This document shows positions 8,269 to 57,144 of a DNA stretch of 64,000 nt, piece after piece (within the stretch, counting starts at the first letter, position 1; each line of letters begins with the position of its first letter). Both the position numbers and the translations under genes were made by a program. The notes under the pieces were generated by a model, which searched no databases, had not been told where the DNA came from, and was given only the letters and a program-made list of their open reading frames with translations. The DNA is from a virus, in the IMG/VR virus record IMGVR_UViG_3300020462_000003, positions 10,267-74,266 of that record; one strand, 5' to 3'.

Positions 8269-10410
8269 ATGCTTCCCGTCAATCAGATGCCGTACCACCC
8301 CACGGCAGAACAACTCGTGCAGATCCTTTGCAACCGTACCCAGAACACGGAGCCGTTATTCTTCCGCGTCCTGGTCGGTTACTACTTCGCCGTAGTGGCC
8401 TCGCAGATGCGCTGCATCATCGGCACACCTGACCGTGGGGATATTCCAGTCAACGTCTATGCGTTGAACCTGTCCCCTTCCGGCACCGGCAAGGGCCACT
8501 CCACCAGCATCATCGAGGACGAGGTGATACATCAGTTCCGCGACCGCTTCCTGGAAGAGACCTTTCCCCTGCTGGCTGATCGTAACCTGCCGGTACTGGC
8601 TAACAAGCGTGCCGTGCGCAAGAACAGCGATCCGGATGAGGAGCTGATCCGTGTGCAGAAGGAATTCGAGCAGCTGGGTTCCCTGCTGTTCAGCTTCGAC
8701 TCTGGTACCAGCCCTGCAGTCAAGCAAATGCGCCACAAGCTGCTGATGGCGGATGCCGGTGCAGTGAACCTGGAGATCGACGAGATCGGTTTGAACCTGG
8801 TGGGCAACACCGAGGTGCTGACTGTGTTCCTTGAGCTATACGACAAGGGCAAGGTCAAGACCAAGCTGGTCAAGTCGACTTCCGACAACTCACGCTTCGA
8901 GGAGATCAAGGGCACCACGCCGACCAACATGATGCTCTTCGGTACACCGTCCAAGCTGTTCGACGGTGCGGCCACTGAGCAGGCTCTGTACTCGATGCTG
9001 GATACCGGCTACGCACGTCGCTGCCTGTTTGGCTATCTCAAAGGTGCCAGCAAGAATCTGGATCTGACTCCGGAGGAGGTCTACGACCTGCAAACCAGCC
9101 AGCAGACCAACCAGTTCCTCGAAGAGCTGGCCGATAAGCTGGAACGCCTGGCCGATATCATCAACGCCAACAAGCGTCTGGTGATGAGCCGGGACACCAG
9201 CCTGGAGCTGATCCAGTACAAGCTGCTGTGTGAGAAGCAGGCCGACGCCATGCCTGAGCACGACGAGATCCGCAAGGCCGAGCTGTCACACCGTTACTTC
9301 AAGGCGCTCAAGCTGGCTGGTGCTTATGCCTTTGTGGACGACTCACCTGAGCTGACCCTGAGCCATCTGCACAACGCTATCCGACTGGTGGAGGACAGTG
9401 GCTTTGCCTTTGGGCAGATGCTCTCGCGTGATCGTCCATACGTGAAGCTAGCCAAGTACCTGGCTTCCATCGGCAAGGAAGTGACTCAGGCTGATCTGGT
9501 TGAAGACCTGCCCTACTACAAGGGGTCTGCTAGCCAGAAGCAGGAGATGCTGACGCTCGCCACGGCCTACGGCTACAAGAACAACATCATCATCAAGAAG
9601 GCGTTCAACGACGGCATCGAGTTCCTGCGTGGCGAAAGCCTCAAGGAAACCGACCTGGACAAGATGGTGGTGAGCTATTCCAGCGATATGACCACCGGCT
9701 ACAACAACGAGACGGCACCGTTCGACAAGCTGCACCTGCTGACTCAGGCCCCAGGCATGCACTGGATCAACCATCACCTCAAGGGTGGTTACCGCAACGA
9801 GGACAACGCTGAACCCGGCTTCAACCTGCTGGTTATCGACGTGGACGGCACCTGCAACCTGAACACAGCCAAGCTGCTGCTCAAGGATTACAAGGCGCTG
9901 TACTACACCACCAAGAGCCACACCGACCAGAACCACCGGTATCGCATCATCCTGCCGACCAACTTCGAGTTGAAGATGGATGCCAAGGACTACAAGGAGT
10001 TCTACAACAACGTCCTGCAGTGGCTGCCATTCGATGCTGATCCCTCTGCTGCCCATCGGTGCAAGAAGTGGCTGACCAAACCCGGTCACTACGAATACAC
10101 CGAAGGCGATGTGTTCGATGTTCTGCCCTTCATTCCGAAGACCAGCAAGAACGAAGAGCGCAAGCAACGATTCGACTCGCAACAGTCGCTAGACAACTTG
10201 GAACGCTGGGTCATCAACAATACCGGCGATGGTAACCGCAACAACATGTTGCTGCGTTACGCCATGATTCTCATGGACGCCAACTTCGACTTCGACGGTA
10301 TCCGCTCTCGCGTGGTGTCGTTGAATGACAAGTTGCCAGACAAGTTGGACGAAGTGGAGATCATGAGTTCCATCATGGTCACGGTCGGCAAAGCACTCTC
10401 CAAGCGGTGA
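8269..10410 (+). CDS. DNA primase/replication protein (N4 gp43-like)
   Basis: Walker A SPSGTGKG; IDVD; YTTKSH...HRYRII; C-terminal GNRNNMLLRYA (PriCT-like). Confidence 0.85.
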   Translation: MLPVNQMPYHPTAEQLVQILCNRTQNTEPLFFRVLVGYYFAVVASQMRCIIGTPDRGDIPVNVYALNLSPSGTGKGHSTSIIEDEVIHQFRDRFLEETFPLLADRNLPVLANKRAVRKNSDPDEELIRVQKEFEQLGSLLFSFDSGTSPAVKQMRHKLLMADAGAVNLEIDEIGLNLVGNTEVLTVFLELYDKGKVKTKLVKSTSDNSRFEEIKGTTPTNMMLFGTPSKLFDGAATEQALYSMLDTGYARRCLFGYLKGASKNLDLTPEEVYDLQTSQQTNQFLEELADKLERLADIINANKRLVMSRDTSLELIQYKLLCEKQADAMPEHDEIRKAELSHRYFKALKLAGAYAFVDDSPELTLSHLHNAIRLVEDSGFAFGQMLSRDRPYVKLAKYLASIGKEVTQADLVEDLPYYKGSASQKQEMLTLATAYGYKNNIIIKKAFNDGIEFLRGESLKETDLDKMVVSYSSDMTTGYNNETAPFDKLHLLTQAPGMHWINHHLKGGYRNEDNAEPGFNLLVIDVDGTCNLNTAKLLLKDYKALYYTTKSHTDQNHRYRIILPTNFELKMDAKDYKEFYNNVLQWLPFDADPSAAHRCKKWLTKPGHYEYTEGDVFDVLPFIPKTSKNEERKQRFDSQQSLDNLERWVINNTGDGNRNNMLLRYAMILMDANFDFDGIRSRVVSLNDKLPDKLDEVEIMSSIMVTVGKALSKR

Positions 10411-47948: not shown

Positions 47949-48172
47949 GTATCACCGTCTTGGTGGTTTACCTCTGCACATCTGCTGCCATGGACAACTG
48001 TTCCGTCTGGCAAGAAGGCAGCTGGACCGGTGCAGCAGCACCCATCTACTGCACCGTCGAGCGTGATCTGGCTGAAGCCAGCGTCCTGCCCAATCAATTC
48101 ATTCGTTACGAATGTGAAACCGTCGAGACCGAACAGGTCGCGCGCACCCAACACAAAGGAATAAACCAATGA
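47945..48172 (+). CDS. small Cys-containing protein
   Basis: ATGA overlaps on both sides; MSITVLVVYLC... Confidence 0.6.
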   Translation: MSITVLVVYLCTSAAMDNCSVWQEGSWTGAAAPIYCTVERDLAEASVLPNQFIRYECETVETEQVARTQHKGINQ

Positions 48173-48501
48173 AGGTAAAACTCAGCCAAGCACACGACAT
48201 GATCGTGCAGTGCATCAAGGTCGGCCTGGTCCCGATCGTCAAGGGCAGCCCTGCCGTGGGCAAGTCCTCCATCGTTCACCAGATCGCCAAGGAATACGGT
48301 CTCAAGGTCATCGACCTGCGCCTTGCTCAGTGCGACCCAACCGATCTGCTGGGCTTCCCCAACACTGCCAATGGCCGGGGCCGCTATGTACCCATGGAAA
48401 CCTTCCCCATCGAAGGAGATGAGCTTCCGAAGGGCTACGAAGGCTGGCTGTTGTTCATGGATGAGTTCACCAGTGCTCCGCGTGGCGTGCAGGCTGCTGC
48501 T
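48169..48501 (+). CDS. MoxR-like AAA+ ATPase (N4 gp24-like), exon 1
   Basis: GSPAVGKS Walker A; LFMDE Walker B; ends ...VQAAA at the intron. Confidence 0.9.
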
Positions 48502-49384
48502 TAATTTATAGGCATTCACAGAAGAGACTCTGTGTCTAAAGCTACTTAAAACGGGAAACTCTGACTAGCTTATATCTGCTTGCACTTAGTTGTGCTTGTT
48601 TGTAAGCTAAAGACAATCCGTTGCTAAGTAGGAATTGAAATGACTGAAATCTGGAAAGACATTCTTGGATATGAAGAGACTTACGAAGTTTCCAACTTCG
48701 GAGGAATCCGTTCCAAGAGCCGAGTAGTCCCTTGTAAAGGGGGAACTCGTACCGTCAAAGGCCAAATCAGAAAAACCTTTCTGAACAGAAAGGGATATCC
48801 AATTACCACGTTGTGTCAAAACAACAAACTGATGACATTTACTGTTCACCAGTTGGTAGCTCAAGCCTTTATTCCCGGCTTCATCAAAGGAACGGAAATT
48901 AACCATAAGGATGGAAATCCTGGTAACCCTTCCGTAACTAATTTGGAAGTATCCAACCCATCTCATAATCAGCTACATGCTGTGAGGATGGGTCTGGTCC
49001 CTAAACAAGGGATATCCAAATACCGGAACGTGACTTATGTGAGTAACCCTCGGGCGAAATATAAGTGGGCGGGATCGGTACGACATGCAGGCAAATCCGT
49101 CTTTGGATGGAAAACCTTCATGACTGAGGAAGAAGCAGCGCGCCATGTTGACTGGTTGCTTGATTCCATTGGAGACACTGACCGGATTCGGAACTTCCCT
49201 TCAATTCCTTAAATGCCCAACGACTAGTCCGCTATAGGACGTAGGCCCAAGTGGGTCGAAATGGTAGCCCCCCAAACAGGTCAAGCTGTGGGGGTTGATA
49301 TAGTCTGCTCTGCATAGAAATATGCAGCAGTGATGCCTCAGGAACATCACGGGTAAGGCGTAACGCCCCTTACTGAACACAAGG
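48502..49384 (+). mobile_element. group I self-splicing intron (IA2-like) carrying an HNH endonuclease
   Basis: U-G splice site in P1; 9-bp P10; P3 gctac/gtagc; P7 gacta/tagtc; P7.1/P7.2; P9 GAAA loop; terminal G; splicing restores the reading frame. Confidence 0.93.
48640..49212 (+). CDS. intron-encoded HNH homing endonuclease (NUMOD4 + HNH + AP2-like)
   Basis: EIWKDILGYE..YEVSNFG; VHQLVA..INHKDGN..NLE..HN; SKYRNV..W..EEEAA. Confidence 0.9.
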   Translation: MTEIWKDILGYEETYEVSNFGGIRSKSRVVPCKGGTRTVKGQIRKTFLNRKGYPITTLCQNNKLMTFTVHQLVAQAFIPGFIKGTEINHKDGNPGNPSVTNLEVSNPSHNQLHAVRMGLVPKQGISKYRNVTYVSNPRAKYKWAGSVRHAGKSVFGWKTFMTEEEAARHVDWLLDSIGDTDRIRNFPSIP

Positions 49385-50065
49385 TATAAATTAGTCCTGG
49401 ATCGCATGGTCGGTACTCACACCCTGCACAAGAAAGTCGCCATCGTCTGTGCAGGCAACCTGGAGACAGACGGAGCCATCGTCGAAGAGATGAGCACGGC
49501 TCTGGAATCTCGCTTGGTTCACATGGAAGTCACGGTGGACCACAAGGACTGGTGTGAAGGATGGGCCATGCAGAACGGCATCGACCACCGCATCACCAGC
49601 TTCATCAAATTCAAACCAGGGATGCTGTACACCTTCAGCCCTGATCACACCGACTGCACCTACGCCAGCCCCCGAACCTGGGAGTTCGCCAACCGCCTGG
49701 TCAAGGGCAAAGAGATCGGTATCGACGACATTCCTCTGTTGGCTGGAACCATCTCCGAAGGCGTGGCACGCGAGTTTCGAACCTTCACCCAGATCTACAG
49801 CAACCTGCCCACCCTGACCCAGATGATGGAACAGGCCACCACGCTGCCGGTGCCTCAGGAACCCAGCATCCTGTTTGCACTGACCGGTTCGATTGCGCAC
49901 AACGCCAACGATGAGAACGCAGGTCCGCTGATGGACTTCGTGTCCCGTCTGCCGATCGAGTTTCAGGTGGTCACCCTGCGTGAAATGGTACGTCGTAGCC
50001 CTGCCCTGATGAACCACAAGTCCGTCCAGGCGTGGATCACCAAGAACGCGAAGGAGCTGTTCTGA
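49385..50065 (+). CDS. MoxR-like AAA+ ATPase, exon 2
   Basis: YKLVLDRMVG...CAGN...MSTALESR...ASPRTW; spliced product 337 aa. Confidence 0.9.
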   Translation, partial: YKLVLDRMVGTHTLHKKVAIVCAGNLETDGAIVEEMSTALESRLVHMEVTVDHKDWCEGWAMQNGIDHRITSFIKFKPGMLYTFSPDHTDCTYASPRTWEFANRLVKGKEIGIDDIPLLAGTISEGVAREFRTFTQIYSNLPTLTQMMEQATTLPVPQEPSILFALTGSIAHNANDENAGPLMDFVSRLPIEFQVVTLREMVRRSPALMNHKSVQAWITKNAKELF

Positions 50066-50648: not shown

Positions 50649-50825
50649 ATGCTCGTATTAACCCGCAAGGCAGGTCAGGCAATTCACATCGGCGACAACA
50701 TTGTTGTTCGTATTCTGGGTTATCAGAACGGTCACTTCCGCGTGGGCATTGAAGCCCCCAAGGACATTGATATTCAACGGGACGATATGAAGAATCCAAA
50801 AAAGCCGGAAGTTGTCAGTGAATAG
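50649..50825 (+). CDS. csrA: CsrA/RsmA-family translational regulator
   Basis: Own translation MLVLTRKAGQAIHIGDNIVVRILGYQNGHFRVGIEAPKDIDIQRDDMKNPKKPEVVSE; Arg44 conserved. Confidence 0.9.
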   Translation: MLVLTRKAGQAIHIGDNIVVRILGYQNGHFRVGIEAPKDIDIQRDDMKNPKKPEVVSE

Positions 50826-51077: not shown

Positions 51078-52184
51078 ATGTCATTGCAAGATGCCAACAA
51101 GGCTCTCGATAAAGCCAAGATCGGTCTTATGAGTAAGCCTGATAGTGCTTTCTTTACCACCCTCTGTCTTTCGTTTCGTCATCTGTTTGACGAGACCATT
51201 CCAACTGCGTGTGTGTCCGATACCGAGATCCGGATCAACCCGCAGTTCTTCCTTTCGCTCTCCGATCAAGAGCGGATATTCGTCCTGGTGCATGAGTGCA
51301 TGCACCCTGCCCTGATGCACACCGTGCGTCGAGGGGATCGTGATCCCGTGAAGTGGAACATCGCTGGCGATCACGTCATCAACCTGATGCTGCTGGATCG
51401 TGGCTTCAAGATGCCTGATTGGGTACTCAAGGACCGTCAGTACCAGGGGATGAGTACCCTGCAGGTATACGACCTGTTGCCGGATGATCCCCAAGCACCC
51501 CGCATGCAGGACTTGTCGCCCAGCTCTCAGTCTCCCGAGGAGCAACAACAAACCGAGCAAAACATCACCGATATCGTCATGCGTGCTGCTACGCAGTCGG
51601 CGATGAGTGGAGATACACCAGGCACCATTCCAGGTGATATCCAGATCTTCCTGGATGAATACCTCAACCCCATACTTCCATGGGACAAGTTACTACGGAA
51701 GTTCTTCAATCAGTTCGCCAAGACGGACTACACCTGGAAGCGTCCTAATCGCCGTTTCATGCCTGAGCATATTCTCCCAACACTTTACGGCATCACCCTC
51801 GGTGAAATAGCCGTTGCCGTTGATACGTCTGGTTCCGTCAGTGACGCAGACTTCCATCGCTTCATCAGTGAAGTAAATGGAATCATGAAGAAGTTGAAAC
51901 CCTCACAAATAACCCTGTTGCAGTTTGATACCCGCATCCATAAAAAGGATGTACTCAAAAGTGTATCTGACTTAAATCAGGTCACGTTCCACGGACGTGG
52001 GGGTACGAATGTTTCAGAAGTAATCCAGTGGGCCAGAGACAACAAGCCAGTTGCACTCTTGTTATTCAGCGACGGTGAATTCAGGCATGTAACGCCTGCA
52101 CCGAAGTGTCCGGTATTGTGGGTTATCCACAACAACAAAAAGTTTACTGCCCCCTACGGGAAAGTTATCCACTACAACATCTGA
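51078..52184 (+). CDS. metallopeptidase-like + vWA domain protein (N4 gp25-like)
   Basis: HECMH, WNIAGD..IN, DTSGS MIDAS, GRGGT, FSDG. Confidence 0.88.
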   Translation: MSLQDANKALDKAKIGLMSKPDSAFFTTLCLSFRHLFDETIPTACVSDTEIRINPQFFLSLSDQERIFVLVHECMHPALMHTVRRGDRDPVKWNIAGDHVINLMLLDRGFKMPDWVLKDRQYQGMSTLQVYDLLPDDPQAPRMQDLSPSSQSPEEQQQTEQNITDIVMRAATQSAMSGDTPGTIPGDIQIFLDEYLNPILPWDKLLRKFFNQFAKTDYTWKRPNRRFMPEHILPTLYGITLGEIAVAVDTSGSVSDADFHRFISEVNGIMKKLKPSQITLLQFDTRIHKKDVLKSVSDLNQVTFHGRGGTNVSEVIQWARDNKPVALLLFSDGEFRHVTPAPKCPVLWVIHNNKKFTAPYGKVIHYNI

Positions 52185-54447: not shown

Positions 54448-57144
54448 ATGCGGCACCTTATCTTCGAGCAGGCCGAGCGTTACGAGATTGCCGTGCTGAC
54501 CAAGGCGGCAGCTTTCAACGAGATGGCTATGCGTAACCACTACATCGAGCCGCTGAACAAGCTCGGTGTGCCCACCCACCGCATGATCGGCTTCACCTTG
54601 GAATACAACGACGCTGGCAAGGTCCCGGTAGCCTTCATCAAGGAGTACCTGGACAAGCTGCTGGTTGCGTTGAACAGCCTGGGGGTGAAGTACCTCTTCT
54701 GCACCGATGCAGCGTATTTCAAGACGCTGACCAAGATGACCAAGGCCGAACCGCACTACGGCTATGTGCTGCCCTGCAAGATCCAGGGATTCGAGCACAT
54801 GCAGGTGGTGCTGGGCCTGAACTACCAGCAGATGGTCTACAACCCCGAGTTGTACCAGAAGCTGGACATGTCGTTGCAGACCCTGGCCGATGCCGTGCAA
54901 GGCAATTACCAACCACTGGGCCACAACATCATTCACTCAGCCCAGTACCCATCCACCTATGACGACATTGCAGCCGCACTCGACTCGCTCCATCAGTACC
55001 CTGAGCTATCGGCAGATATCGAGGCCTTCGGTCTGGCTTTCAACCAGGCCGGTATCGCCTCGATTGGCTTCGCCTGGGACCAGCACAACGGTGTCGCATT
55101 CCTGGTCGACTACATGCCGATGCTGGAGGCCGAGAAGGTCCTCAACCTGCTGCAGATCCCTGACCACAACAAGGGGCTGCATGGCGTTCGCTGCAACAAC
55201 AAGCCCATCAAGCAGCTGCTGCTCAAGTTTCTCACCAGCTACAAGGGCAAGCTGACCTGGCACAACGCCTCTTATGACCTGCGATCGATCATCTACGAAC
55301 TGTGGATGAAAGACTTCCTGGATCAGAAAGGCTTGCTGCTGGGACTGGATATCCTCACCCGATCGTTCGACGACACCAAGGTCATTGCCTACCTGGCCAC
55401 CAACAGCACAGCCGGTAACGTGCTGGGTCTGAAGGCACTGGCTCATGAGTTCGCGGGCAACTGGGCGGTGGAGGAAATCAACAACGTCCTGGCCATCGAG
55501 CCAGCCAAGCTGCTGCAGTACAACCTGGTGGACTGCCTATCGACCAACTACGTCAAGGCCAAGTACTACCCCATCATGGTGGCTGACCAGCAGGAGGGGC
55601 TGTATCACTCGCTGATGCTGCCGAGCCTGAAGGTCATCATCCAGATGGAATTGACCGGCATGCCGATGGAGAAGTCGCGTGTTCAGGAGGCGAAAGCCGA
55701 ACTGGAGCGACTGGAAGCCAGTTACCTCAAAGTCATCATGAGTCACCCACTGATCGCTCCACTGGAAGCGAAGATGACCCACGAGGCCTGGGAGAAGGAC
55801 TTCGAGGATCGCCGTGGTAAGGCGAAAAACCCCGACAAGATCTTTCCCAAGGATCAAAAGACCTTCCCTAAGTCAGTGTTCAACCCCAACTCAGGACCGC
55901 AGCTACAACGTCTGTTGTATCAGGAGATGGGCCTTCCGGTCATCGACCTGACGGACACCAAGCAACCGGCTACCGGTGGCGACACCCTGGAGAAACTGGT
56001 CAACCATGCCAGCAAGCCCGAGGACAAAGCCTTCCTGCAAGCCATGGTCGAGTACACCGGGGTCACCAAGATCCTGTCAGCATTCATCCCAGCGTTTGAA
56101 AAAGCATTGGAGAAGGGTGACGGCAAGGTCTGGCTACATGGTGGCTTCAACCTGGGTGGCACCGTCTCCGGACGACTCAGCTCCAGCAAACCGAACATGC
56201 AACAGATCCCATCGGGGTCGACGTTCGGCAAGCTGATCAAAAGCTGTTTCGCGGCACCCAAGGGCTGGATTTTCGCGGGTGCGGACTTCAACTCGCTGGA
56301 GGACTATATCAGTGCCCTGACAACCAAGGACCCGAACAAGCTCAACGTCTACATCCGAGGCTTCGACGGTCACTGCCTTCGTGCTGCGTACTACTTCCGT
56401 GAGGAATTGGAAGCAGAGGGGCTGATCATCGACCGGGAAGACCCCAAGTCGGTGAACCAGCTCAAGAAGATGGATCATCCTCTTCGCCAGGACTCCAAGG
56501 CACCCACCTTCCTGCTTACCTACGGTGGTACTTACCACGGGATGATGAGCAACCTGGGCTGGCCAGAGGACAAGGCCAAGGCAATCGAAGCCAACTACCA
56601 CGACCTCTACAAGGTGTCGGATGAGTACGTGGCCAAACGGCTGGAGCAGGCTGCCAAAGACGGTTACGTCGAGGTGGCATTCGGACTGCGGGTACGCACC
56701 CCGTTGCTCAAGCAGGTGATCTGGAAAGGCTCGAAGATGCCCTACGAGGCAGCAGCAGAAGGCCGTACCGCAGGCAATGCCCTGGGTCAGTCCTACGGCT
56801 TGCTGAACAACCGGGCAGCGGTTGAGTTCATGCAGAAGGTGTGGAACTCACCCTTCCGCCACGACATTCTGCCGGTGGCGTTGATCCATGACGCTATCTA
56901 CCTGCTGATCCGTGACCGAATCGATGTGGTCACCTGGGCCAACAGGGAATTGATCAAGTCGATGCAGTGGCAGGAGTTGCCGGAGATCCAGCACGACACC
57001 GTGAAACTCGGTGCTGCGTTGGACCTGTTCTACCCGGACTGGGCACACCCCATCACCCTACCCAACGATGCCACGCCTGAGCAGATCCGAGAGGTATGTG
57101 AAAAGGCGTTGGGGGAGTTGGAATCCCACAAGGAGGCTGCATGA
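54448..57144 (+). CDS. family A DNA polymerase (N4 gp39-like)
   Basis: Exo DIE, HNASYD, YNLVD; GTVSGRLSS, GADFNSLE, RQDSKAPTFLLTYG, IHDA. Confidence 0.95.
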   Translation: MRHLIFEQAERYEIAVLTKAAAFNEMAMRNHYIEPLNKLGVPTHRMIGFTLEYNDAGKVPVAFIKEYLDKLLVALNSLGVKYLFCTDAAYFKTLTKMTKAEPHYGYVLPCKIQGFEHMQVVLGLNYQQMVYNPELYQKLDMSLQTLADAVQGNYQPLGHNIIHSAQYPSTYDDIAAALDSLHQYPELSADIEAFGLAFNQAGIASIGFAWDQHNGVAFLVDYMPMLEAEKVLNLLQIPDHNKGLHGVRCNNKPIKQLLLKFLTSYKGKLTWHNASYDLRSIIYELWMKDFLDQKGLLLGLDILTRSFDDTKVIAYLATNSTAGNVLGLKALAHEFAGNWAVEEINNVLAIEPAKLLQYNLVDCLSTNYVKAKYYPIMVADQQEGLYHSLMLPSLKVIIQMELTGMPMEKSRVQEAKAELERLEASYLKVIMSHPLIAPLEAKMTHEAWEKDFEDRRGKAKNPDKIFPKDQKTFPKSVFNPNSGPQLQRLLYQEMGLPVIDLTDTKQPATGGDTLEKLVNHASKPEDKAFLQAMVEYTGVTKILSAFIPAFEKALEKGDGKVWLHGGFNLGGTVSGRLSSSKPNMQQIPSGSTFGKLIKSCFAAPKGWIFAGADFNSLEDYISALTTKDPNKLNVYIRGFDGHCLRAAYYFREELEAEGLIIDREDPKSVNQLKKMDHPLRQDSKAPTFLLTYGGTYHGMMSNLGWPEDKAKAIEANYHDLYKVSDEYVAKRLEQAAKDGYVEVAFGLRVRTPLLKQVIWKGSKMPYEAAAEGRTAGNALGQSYGLLNNRAAVEFMQKVWNSPFRHDILPVALIHDAIYLLIRDRIDVVTWANRELIKSMQWQELPEIQHDTVKLGAALDLFYPDWAHPITLPNDATPEQIREVCEKALGELESHKEAA

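Follow-up and report, generated by a model that had tools for sequence, protein, structure and literature searches.

Group I introns of subgroup IA2 are known from several phage genes, among them T4 td (whose intron encodes I-TevI), nrdB, sunY and Twort orf142, and the T4 td/IA2 type is marked by two extra stems, P7.1 and P7.2, between P7 and the 3' strand of P3 (P3'). The closest described counterparts of the element treated here lie in the N4 gp24-like ATPase gene of Klebsiella phage Pylas (NC_049444) and E. coli phage Pollock (NC_027381). The Pylas RefSeq record gives gp35 as a joined coding sequence (CDS), with the remark "HNH Intron splits the protein ... ATPase split by intron", and gp36 as "HNH Homing Endonuclease encoded in intron". 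In Pollock (gp31-gp33), an insertion at the same site is annotated as two ATPase CDS flanking an HNH gene. Here we analyze a 64,000-nucleotide (nt) stretch of DNA, hereafter the window, which covers positions 10,267 to 74,266 of IMGVR_UViG_3300020462_000003, a 74,266-bp IMG/VR virus record with N4-like (Schitoviridae) gene content. The same ATPase gene is interrupted in the window, and the splice boundary in Pylas is the same codon boundary. We conclude with high confidence that an uncultured Schitoviridae phage carries, in its N4 gp24-like AAA ATPase gene, a mobile group I intron with the architecture of T4 td/IA2. As a mobile element it is ordinary: its family is known and already annotated at this site, and no new kind of element or mechanism is revealed.

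An earlier reading of the window made from its letters alone (the sequence-only reading) had placed the break in the ATPase frame after VQAAA (48501) and its resumption, with YKLVLDRMVG, at 49385, separated by an 883-nt insert that is preceded by U and ends in G. All of these coordinates hold. In unspliced RNA, the exon-1 open reading frame (ORF) spans 48169-48504 and ends with VQAAA followed by TAA, the opening codon of the intron, which stops the frame. Joining 48169-48501 to 49385-50065 gives an ATPase of 337 amino acids (aa), and alignment of this spliced product with the uninterrupted proteins of Vibrio phage PJN101 (VQAAS/YKVLLDREVG; a slash within an exon sequence marks the junction) and Erwinia phage S6 (VQAPA/YKLVLDKMVG) leaves no gap at the junction. 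The sequence-only reading had set alignment with intron-less alleles as its own refutation test, and the closest of these, two IMG/VR contigs with 92% nt identity (L009 and L011), read QAAAYKL over the empty site. The insertion lies 13 codons downstream of the DE of Walker B, in agreement with the position after Walker B of a gp24-like AAA ATPase that had been proposed. The GC content of the exons is ~58% (0.58-0.61 locally), and that of the intron is 45% (0.37-0.50 locally).

The predicted fold was examined by covariation among homologous introns, which were found by blastn and protein-guided searches. These introns occupy the same boundary in Pylas, Pollock and two IMG/VR contigs (L022 and L023), and in IMG/VR contig L024 (2295-3242) the intron lies one base further 3' (T/AT of the Tyr codon). 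Together with the window copy, these five made up the covariation alignment (A1), which was scored against a structure of 84 pairs in 15 helices, with P7 entered as a pseudoknot relative to P3. Controls consisted of sliding the 3' partners by 1-3 columns and of 500 shuffles. Standard pairs were found in 96.0% of cells, compared to 35-42% in the slid controls, and compensatory (both-side) change was found at 50 of the 84 pairs, compared to 6-13 in the slid controls. On four of five measures (pairing, compensatory counts, covariation score), none of the 500 shuffles matched the observed values. Helices P2, P3, P4, P6, P7, P7.1, P7.2 and P9 are 100% paired, and most of their positions show compensatory changes. 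As an internal control, P3/P7 scored as wrongly nested instead of as a pseudoknot dropped to 20-37% pairing. Covariation across the six homologues thus backs the fold of an intact group I intron.

The single elements that the sequence-only reading had described, namely P1 (UGCU paired with GGCA, including a U-G pair), a 9-nt P10 guide, core elements of the P/Q/R/S type, P3, P7.1/P7.2 and a GAAA-capped P9, are present as stated. The 5' splice site in P1 carries the U48501.G48511 pair (U.G in 5/6 homologues), and P1 also has two intron-internal pairs, 48502-48503 with 48509-48510. All core helices are intact in the window copy, and the ribozyme portion comprises ~310 nt, a size typical of phage IA introns. 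A minimum free energy fold of 49213-49384 alone recovers P7, P7.1, P7.2, P8 and P9 (z = -2.8). The P7.1/P7.2 layout supports the predicted assignment to subgroup IA2 (T4 td type), both stems being 100% paired and covarying in the alignment and predicted in the minimum free energy fold as well. At the level of sequence comparison, the intron is confirmed as real and its structural reading is borne out.

The intron contains an HNH homing endonuclease gene, as had been proposed. Its product matches Pfam NUMOD4 (54.6 bits, cut-off 23.4, expectation value (E) 1.3e-14) and HNH_3 (26.3 bits, cut-off 24.8, E 5.8e-6), both above the Pfam cut-offs, as well as HNH PHROGs and, by sequence, I-HmuI (1u3e, E 5e-12). 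The nuclease can be aligned end to end with four same-site homologues (61-68% identity) and with the nuclease of a related intron at another site (L008, described below; 38%). Residues N88, H89, D91, G92, N96, N101, N110 and H113 are invariant across the six nuclease homologues. In an AlphaFold model with a mean predicted local distance difference test score (pLDDT) of 75.8, the first 117 residues resemble the I-HmuI fold (E 4e-7). For the C-terminal ~66 residues, modeled as three strands (131-134, 142-149 and 152-160) and a helix (163-177) at a pLDDT of only 62-83, Foldseek returned the plant AP2 structures 7et4/7et5 (probability 1.00, root mean square deviation 2.0-2.8 A, 30-32% identity) and 1gcc (probability 0.97). 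No Pfam AP2 sequence match to the nuclease was obtained even at E 10, and a PDB sequence search with the C-terminus gave no match. From the domain matches and the C-terminal fold likeness, the nuclease is therefore assigned to the HNH-AP2 type, and this homing endonuclease appears to be intact. The Shine-Dalgarno sequence of its gene, AGGA (48630-48633), falls within the 5' strand of P6a, and the final codons of the gene supply the 3' strand. P6a and P6 are separated by a conserved TAAAT internal loop, in which the stop codon is found. Because these translation signals sit in P6a and the adjoining loop, folding and splicing of the ribozyme probably compete with translation of the nuclease.

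In the proposed mechanism, the intron would fold in the pre-mRNA into P1-P9.2 with a P3/P7 pseudoknot. An exogenous G would attack 3' of U48501, positioned in P1 by the U.G pair, P10 would bring exon 2 into line, and exon 1 would attack 3' of G49384 through its freed 3' OH, so that GCT/TAT would be joined and the 337-aa ATPase restored. During mixed infection, the HNH nuclease, which has NUMOD4 and AP2-fold modules for DNA binding, would introduce a cut or nick close to the insertion site of intron-less alleles, and repair off the intron-bearing copy would transmit the intron with a few flanking exon bases. Catalysis, the activity and target of the nuclease and the direction of transfer are steps that we infer.

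The following observations weigh against this account. Six sequences are a small sample, and shared ancestry lies behind some of the covariation counts. When the whole window was scanned against Rfam at the gathering threshold, no matches were returned, and a permissive scan gave RF00028 at 20.9 bits (E 0.009; gathering score 50), in the 3' half only. The ATPase itself matches Pfam AAA (18 bits) and AAA_5 (15 bits) under the cut-offs of both and is only weakly "MoxR-like"; it matches phrog_1297 "ATPase" with E 4e-124, and its relatives in public records bear the names ATPase, MoxR-like or N4 gp24-like. The RF00028 search, which had been suggested as a check, is thus divided in its outcome: the score falls short, while the R element CAACGACUA, the S element GAUAUAGUC and the P9 GAAA hairpin agree with the consensus. 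We attribute the low score to the 573-nt ORF that occupies the P6a loop. The ORF-bearing Pollock homologue is also under the RF00028 threshold (33.5 and 28.9 bits for its two halves). A second intron in the same Pollock gene, which is ORF-less, scores 101 bits (E 2.6e-25) and likewise has the order P7-P7.1-P7.2-P3', with a P7.2 hairpin of like form.

A score under threshold would also be expected of a decayed, splicing-dead intron, which would leave the ATPase a pseudogene in this phage. We consider such decay very unlikely, since no core helix is disrupted, conservation extends to the omega G, the U.G pair and the R and S elements, and the nuclease ORF is full-length with invariant catalytic residues. 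The ATPase exons, too, are 92-93% identical in nt to their nearest relatives (97% in aa over the whole protein), and the frame is undamaged.

The ~310 nt of non-coding sequence flanking the nuclease gene make up a complete group I core with strong covariation, with boundaries exactly after U and after G and with P1 and P10 present. This argues against a free-standing HNH gene whose insertion left the ATPase in two pieces that are translated separately and not spliced, the "genes in pieces" arrangement for which mobE in the Aeh1 nrdA gene is a precedent. Two ATPase CDS around an HNH gene are what the Pollock and ZC03 records show, the paper on Pseudomonas phages ZC03 and ZC08 calls their insertion a homing endonuclease and not an intron, and an ATG is present at 49406, but a product started there would be without the conserved YKLVLDR, and the ATG has no clear upstream ribosome-binding site. 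We regard such a split gene as a shade less probable than a dead intron.

The sequence-only reading had further suggested that the ATPase is an unusual and possibly undescribed host site. Full-text literature searches found no paper calling the gp24 ATPase insertion a group I intron and gave only the ZC03/ZC08 endonuclease insertion and a td intron in phage pVa5. The suggestion is nevertheless refuted, because the Pylas record already annotates an intron-split ATPase with an HNH endonuclease at the identical codon boundary; in addition, Pollock has the same insertion, phage pYD6-A has a join in the same gene, and a paper of 2017 had reported the ZC03/ZC08 insertion. That phage group I introns were hitherto undescribed from this gene or site is accordingly the least probable of these alternatives. 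An intein is excluded because the insert opens with an in-frame stop (TAA is its first codon), and a group II intron was rejected on account of no reverse transcriptase, a sole long ORF that is an HNH nuclease, and an RNA that fits the group I fold. The preferred reading remains a mobile group I intron, the features of which are collected in the table.

Table. Coordinates of the ATPase exons, the intron and its predicted structural elements, and the nuclease gene in the window. Paired strands are joined by "with"; pairing and compensatory changes refer to the covariation alignment of six introns.
Feature	Position	Strand	Details
Exon 1, gp24-like AAA ATPase	48169-48501	+	111 codons; Walker A GSPAVGKS, Walker B LLFMDE; C-terminus VQAAA; Pfam AAA 18.3 bits
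Group I intron	48502-49384	+	883 nt; preceded by T48501, ends with G49384
P1 hairpin	48498-48514	+	Exon TGCT (48498-48501) with GGCA (48511-48514); 97% of cells paired
P10 guide	48502-48510	+	TAATTTATA, exact reverse complement of the exon-2 start 49385-49393 (TATAAATTA)
P2 hairpin	48517-48534	+	5/6 pairs compensatory
P3	48541-48545 with 49264-49268	+	GCTAC with GTAGC; 100% paired, 3/5 pairs compensatory
P4	48550-48555 with 48617-48622	+	Encloses P5; 100% paired, 3/6 compensatory
P5	48560-48562 with 48611-48613	+	From covariation alignment
P5a extension, variable	48566-48572 with 48603-48609	+	From covariation alignment
P6	48623-48624 with 49215-49216	+	100% paired
P6a	48630-48634 with 49205-49209	+	5/5 pairs compensatory
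Homing endonuclease ORF	48640-49212	+	573 nt, 190 aa, in P6a loop; NUMOD4, I-HmuI-like HNH, C-terminal AP2-fold
R element	49218-49226	+	CAACGACTA
P7	49222-49226 with 49301-49305	+	100% paired, 1/5 compensatory
P7.1	49227-49240	+	100% paired, 4/4 compensatory
P7.2	49244-49257	+	100% paired, 4/5 compensatory
P8	49269-49294	+	96% paired, 5/9 compensatory
S element	49297-49305	+	GATATAGTC
P9, GAAA loop	49310-49327	+	100% paired
P9.1	49330-49350	+	From covariation alignment
P9.2	49353-49373	+	From covariation alignment
Omega G	49384	+	Kept in 8/8 aligned introns
Exon 2, ATPase	49385-50065	+	226 codons and stop; N-terminus YKLVLDRMVG

A second exact copy of GATATAGTC at 56302-56310 (-) lies antisense within an 898-aa ORF, with no other core elements nearby, and was taken as chance. 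A scan for sigma-70 promoters in and near the intron found none.

Pylas and Pollock share with the window the boundary ...QAAA/YKL (GCTGCT/TATAA), an intron RNA that is ~68% identical over 88-93% of the intron with all helices in common, and an HNH endonuclease in the same P6a loop (68% aa identity for the Pollock nuclease, L021). They differ in that both are AT-richer enterobacterial phages whose ATPases are ~40-50% identical to that of the window, in that the anchored P10 is 3 bp compared to 9 bp in the window, and in the P5 extension, P9.1 and P9.2, which are unlike those of the window. The L024 intron has an extra ~70-nt insert near its 5' end, and no U.G pair could be drawn at its 5' splice site.

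Likeness to the established layout of T4 td and other IA2 introns includes P7.1 and P7.2 between P7 and P3', an ORF looped from P6a, and the interruption of a phage protein gene at a conserved motif. The host gene is another one, and the window nuclease is HNH-AP2, whereas I-TevI is of the GIY-YIG family. The N-terminal 117-130 residues of the window nuclease are homologous to I-HmuI of the DNA polymerase intron of Bacillus phage SPO1 (1u3e; 37% identity in the fold alignment), and both are intron-encoded HNH enzymes. The two differ in the C-terminal module, which has the AP2 fold in the window nuclease, and in host gene and phage family.

Introns are also present at other sites of this ATPase gene. 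Pollock carries its second, ORF-less group I intron (L002:779-1131) in the Walker A region, where it is unannotated, and exon 1 is entered in the record as an 87-nt "hypothetical protein" CDS. In pYD6-A, the join falls in a third region, at about codon 215-230. An HNH endonuclease insertion in the ATPase of ZC03 and ZC08 was published in 2017, with the gene misnamed "ribonucleotide reductase" and the intron not recognized (PMC5418858). The ZC03 insertion (L006, 1764-2678) is at codon 59/60, and over its 3' 176 nt it shares 80% identity with the window intron; on this evidence, the ZC03/ZC08 HNH insertion is a group I intron of the window's family. In the RefSeq record of ZC03, the name "ATPase" is on exon 2 only.

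A related intron of ~907 nt (L008:1940-2846) lies inside codon 60 (CT/T) of an ATPase gene that is 93.5% nt identical to that of the window, and this contig has an empty, intron-less flank at the window's intron site. Its P3'-P8-P7'-P9 stretch is identical to the window at 64 of 66 positions (Pylas, 91%), and its nuclease, also HNH-AP2, and its peripheral helices are far more divergent than the core. This core likeness is a hint that intron copies recombined or that the core was re-targeted, for which 2 compared to 6 mismatches in a conserved segment are weak evidence. The introns of L008, ZC03/ZC08, Pollock (the ORF-less copy) and pYD6-A are of the same ribozyme family as that of the window and differ from it in insertion sites and guide sequences. 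IA2-type introns with HNH-AP2 nucleases have thus recurrently targeted the gp24-like ATPase of Schitoviridae, at no fewer than four sites.

Four near relatives of the window ATPase were found in IMG/VR (L008, L009, L010 and L011; 88-93.5% nt identity), and three of them (L009, L010 and L011; 88-92%) are uninterrupted at the window's site. Across the junction, the intron-less relatives have GCTGCC/TACAAGCTCGTG and the window has GCTGCT/TATAAATTAGTC. Six substitutions fall within 13 nt of the junction, all silent and AT-enriching, against a gene-wide divergence of ~8%, so that the codons GCC/TAC AAG CTC GTG of the relatives read GCT/TAT AAA TTA GTC in the window. The window owes both the obligatory -1 U and the 9-bp P10 complementarity to these changes. 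The first codons of exon 2, TAT AAA TTA GTC, are atypical for the gene, in which the GC content at third codon positions is 0.75 and TTA occurs just this once among 30 Leu codons. In the AT-rich enterobacterial same-site alleles, exon 2 starts with TATAAG or TATAAA. By our reading, the anchored P10 is only 3-4 bp in four same-site homologues, and the 9-bp P10 is therefore peculiar to the window copy. L008 has its own patch of ~6 silent AT-enriching changes just downstream of its codon-60 intron.

The flank is most simply explained if the intron came horizontally from a donor richer in AT and a short stretch of exon was co-converted with it, an unsurprising mark of recent homing; selection, either for P1/P10 pairing or for nuclease resistance, may have sharpened the patch. 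From these comparisons, the lineage was likely intron-less ancestrally and the intron looks recently acquired. More tentatively, introns from AT-rich donors might have crossed into a single GC-rich lineage (ATPases 88-95% nt identical) very recently; intron copies would then have recombined, or the core would have been re-targeted to a second site, with the 9-bp P10 as a post-invasion adaptation. We think this possible but would not favor it. The basis for it is that three contigs are intron-less, the window has its intron at codon 111/112 and L008 inside codon 60, and that silent AT-enriching changes occur in the window and L008 only beside each one's own intron. Intron-less alleles and alleles with an intron at either of these two sites (site C and site B), at ~90% identity, offer a natural contrast for the study of homing and flank co-conversion.

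For annotation, the gene should be read as one 337-aa ATPase product and not as two fragments and an HNH gene. The expectation that automated pipelines would miscall such a gene as fragments is borne out by the Pollock and ZC03 records and by the fragment-length families phrog_16335 and phrog_21479. With several public records and two PHROG fragment families affected, the miscall appears common. Matches to these two families (profile lengths 267 and 68) are confined to the N-terminal part of the ATPase, and the families look as if built from intron-split fragments.

The window ATPase has matches in 798 phage records, from N4-like and other phages, with the best in Schitoviridae and identities of no more than 46% aa. 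A megablast search of the whole locus against phage records gave no match, and the phage is therefore one with no close cultured relative. Downstream of the ATPase lies its DUF2201/VWA partner gene (51078-52184). Between the two, at 50649-50825 (+), is a gene for a 58-aa CsrA/RsmA homologue (Pfam CsrA, E 6.9e-19, 68 bits).

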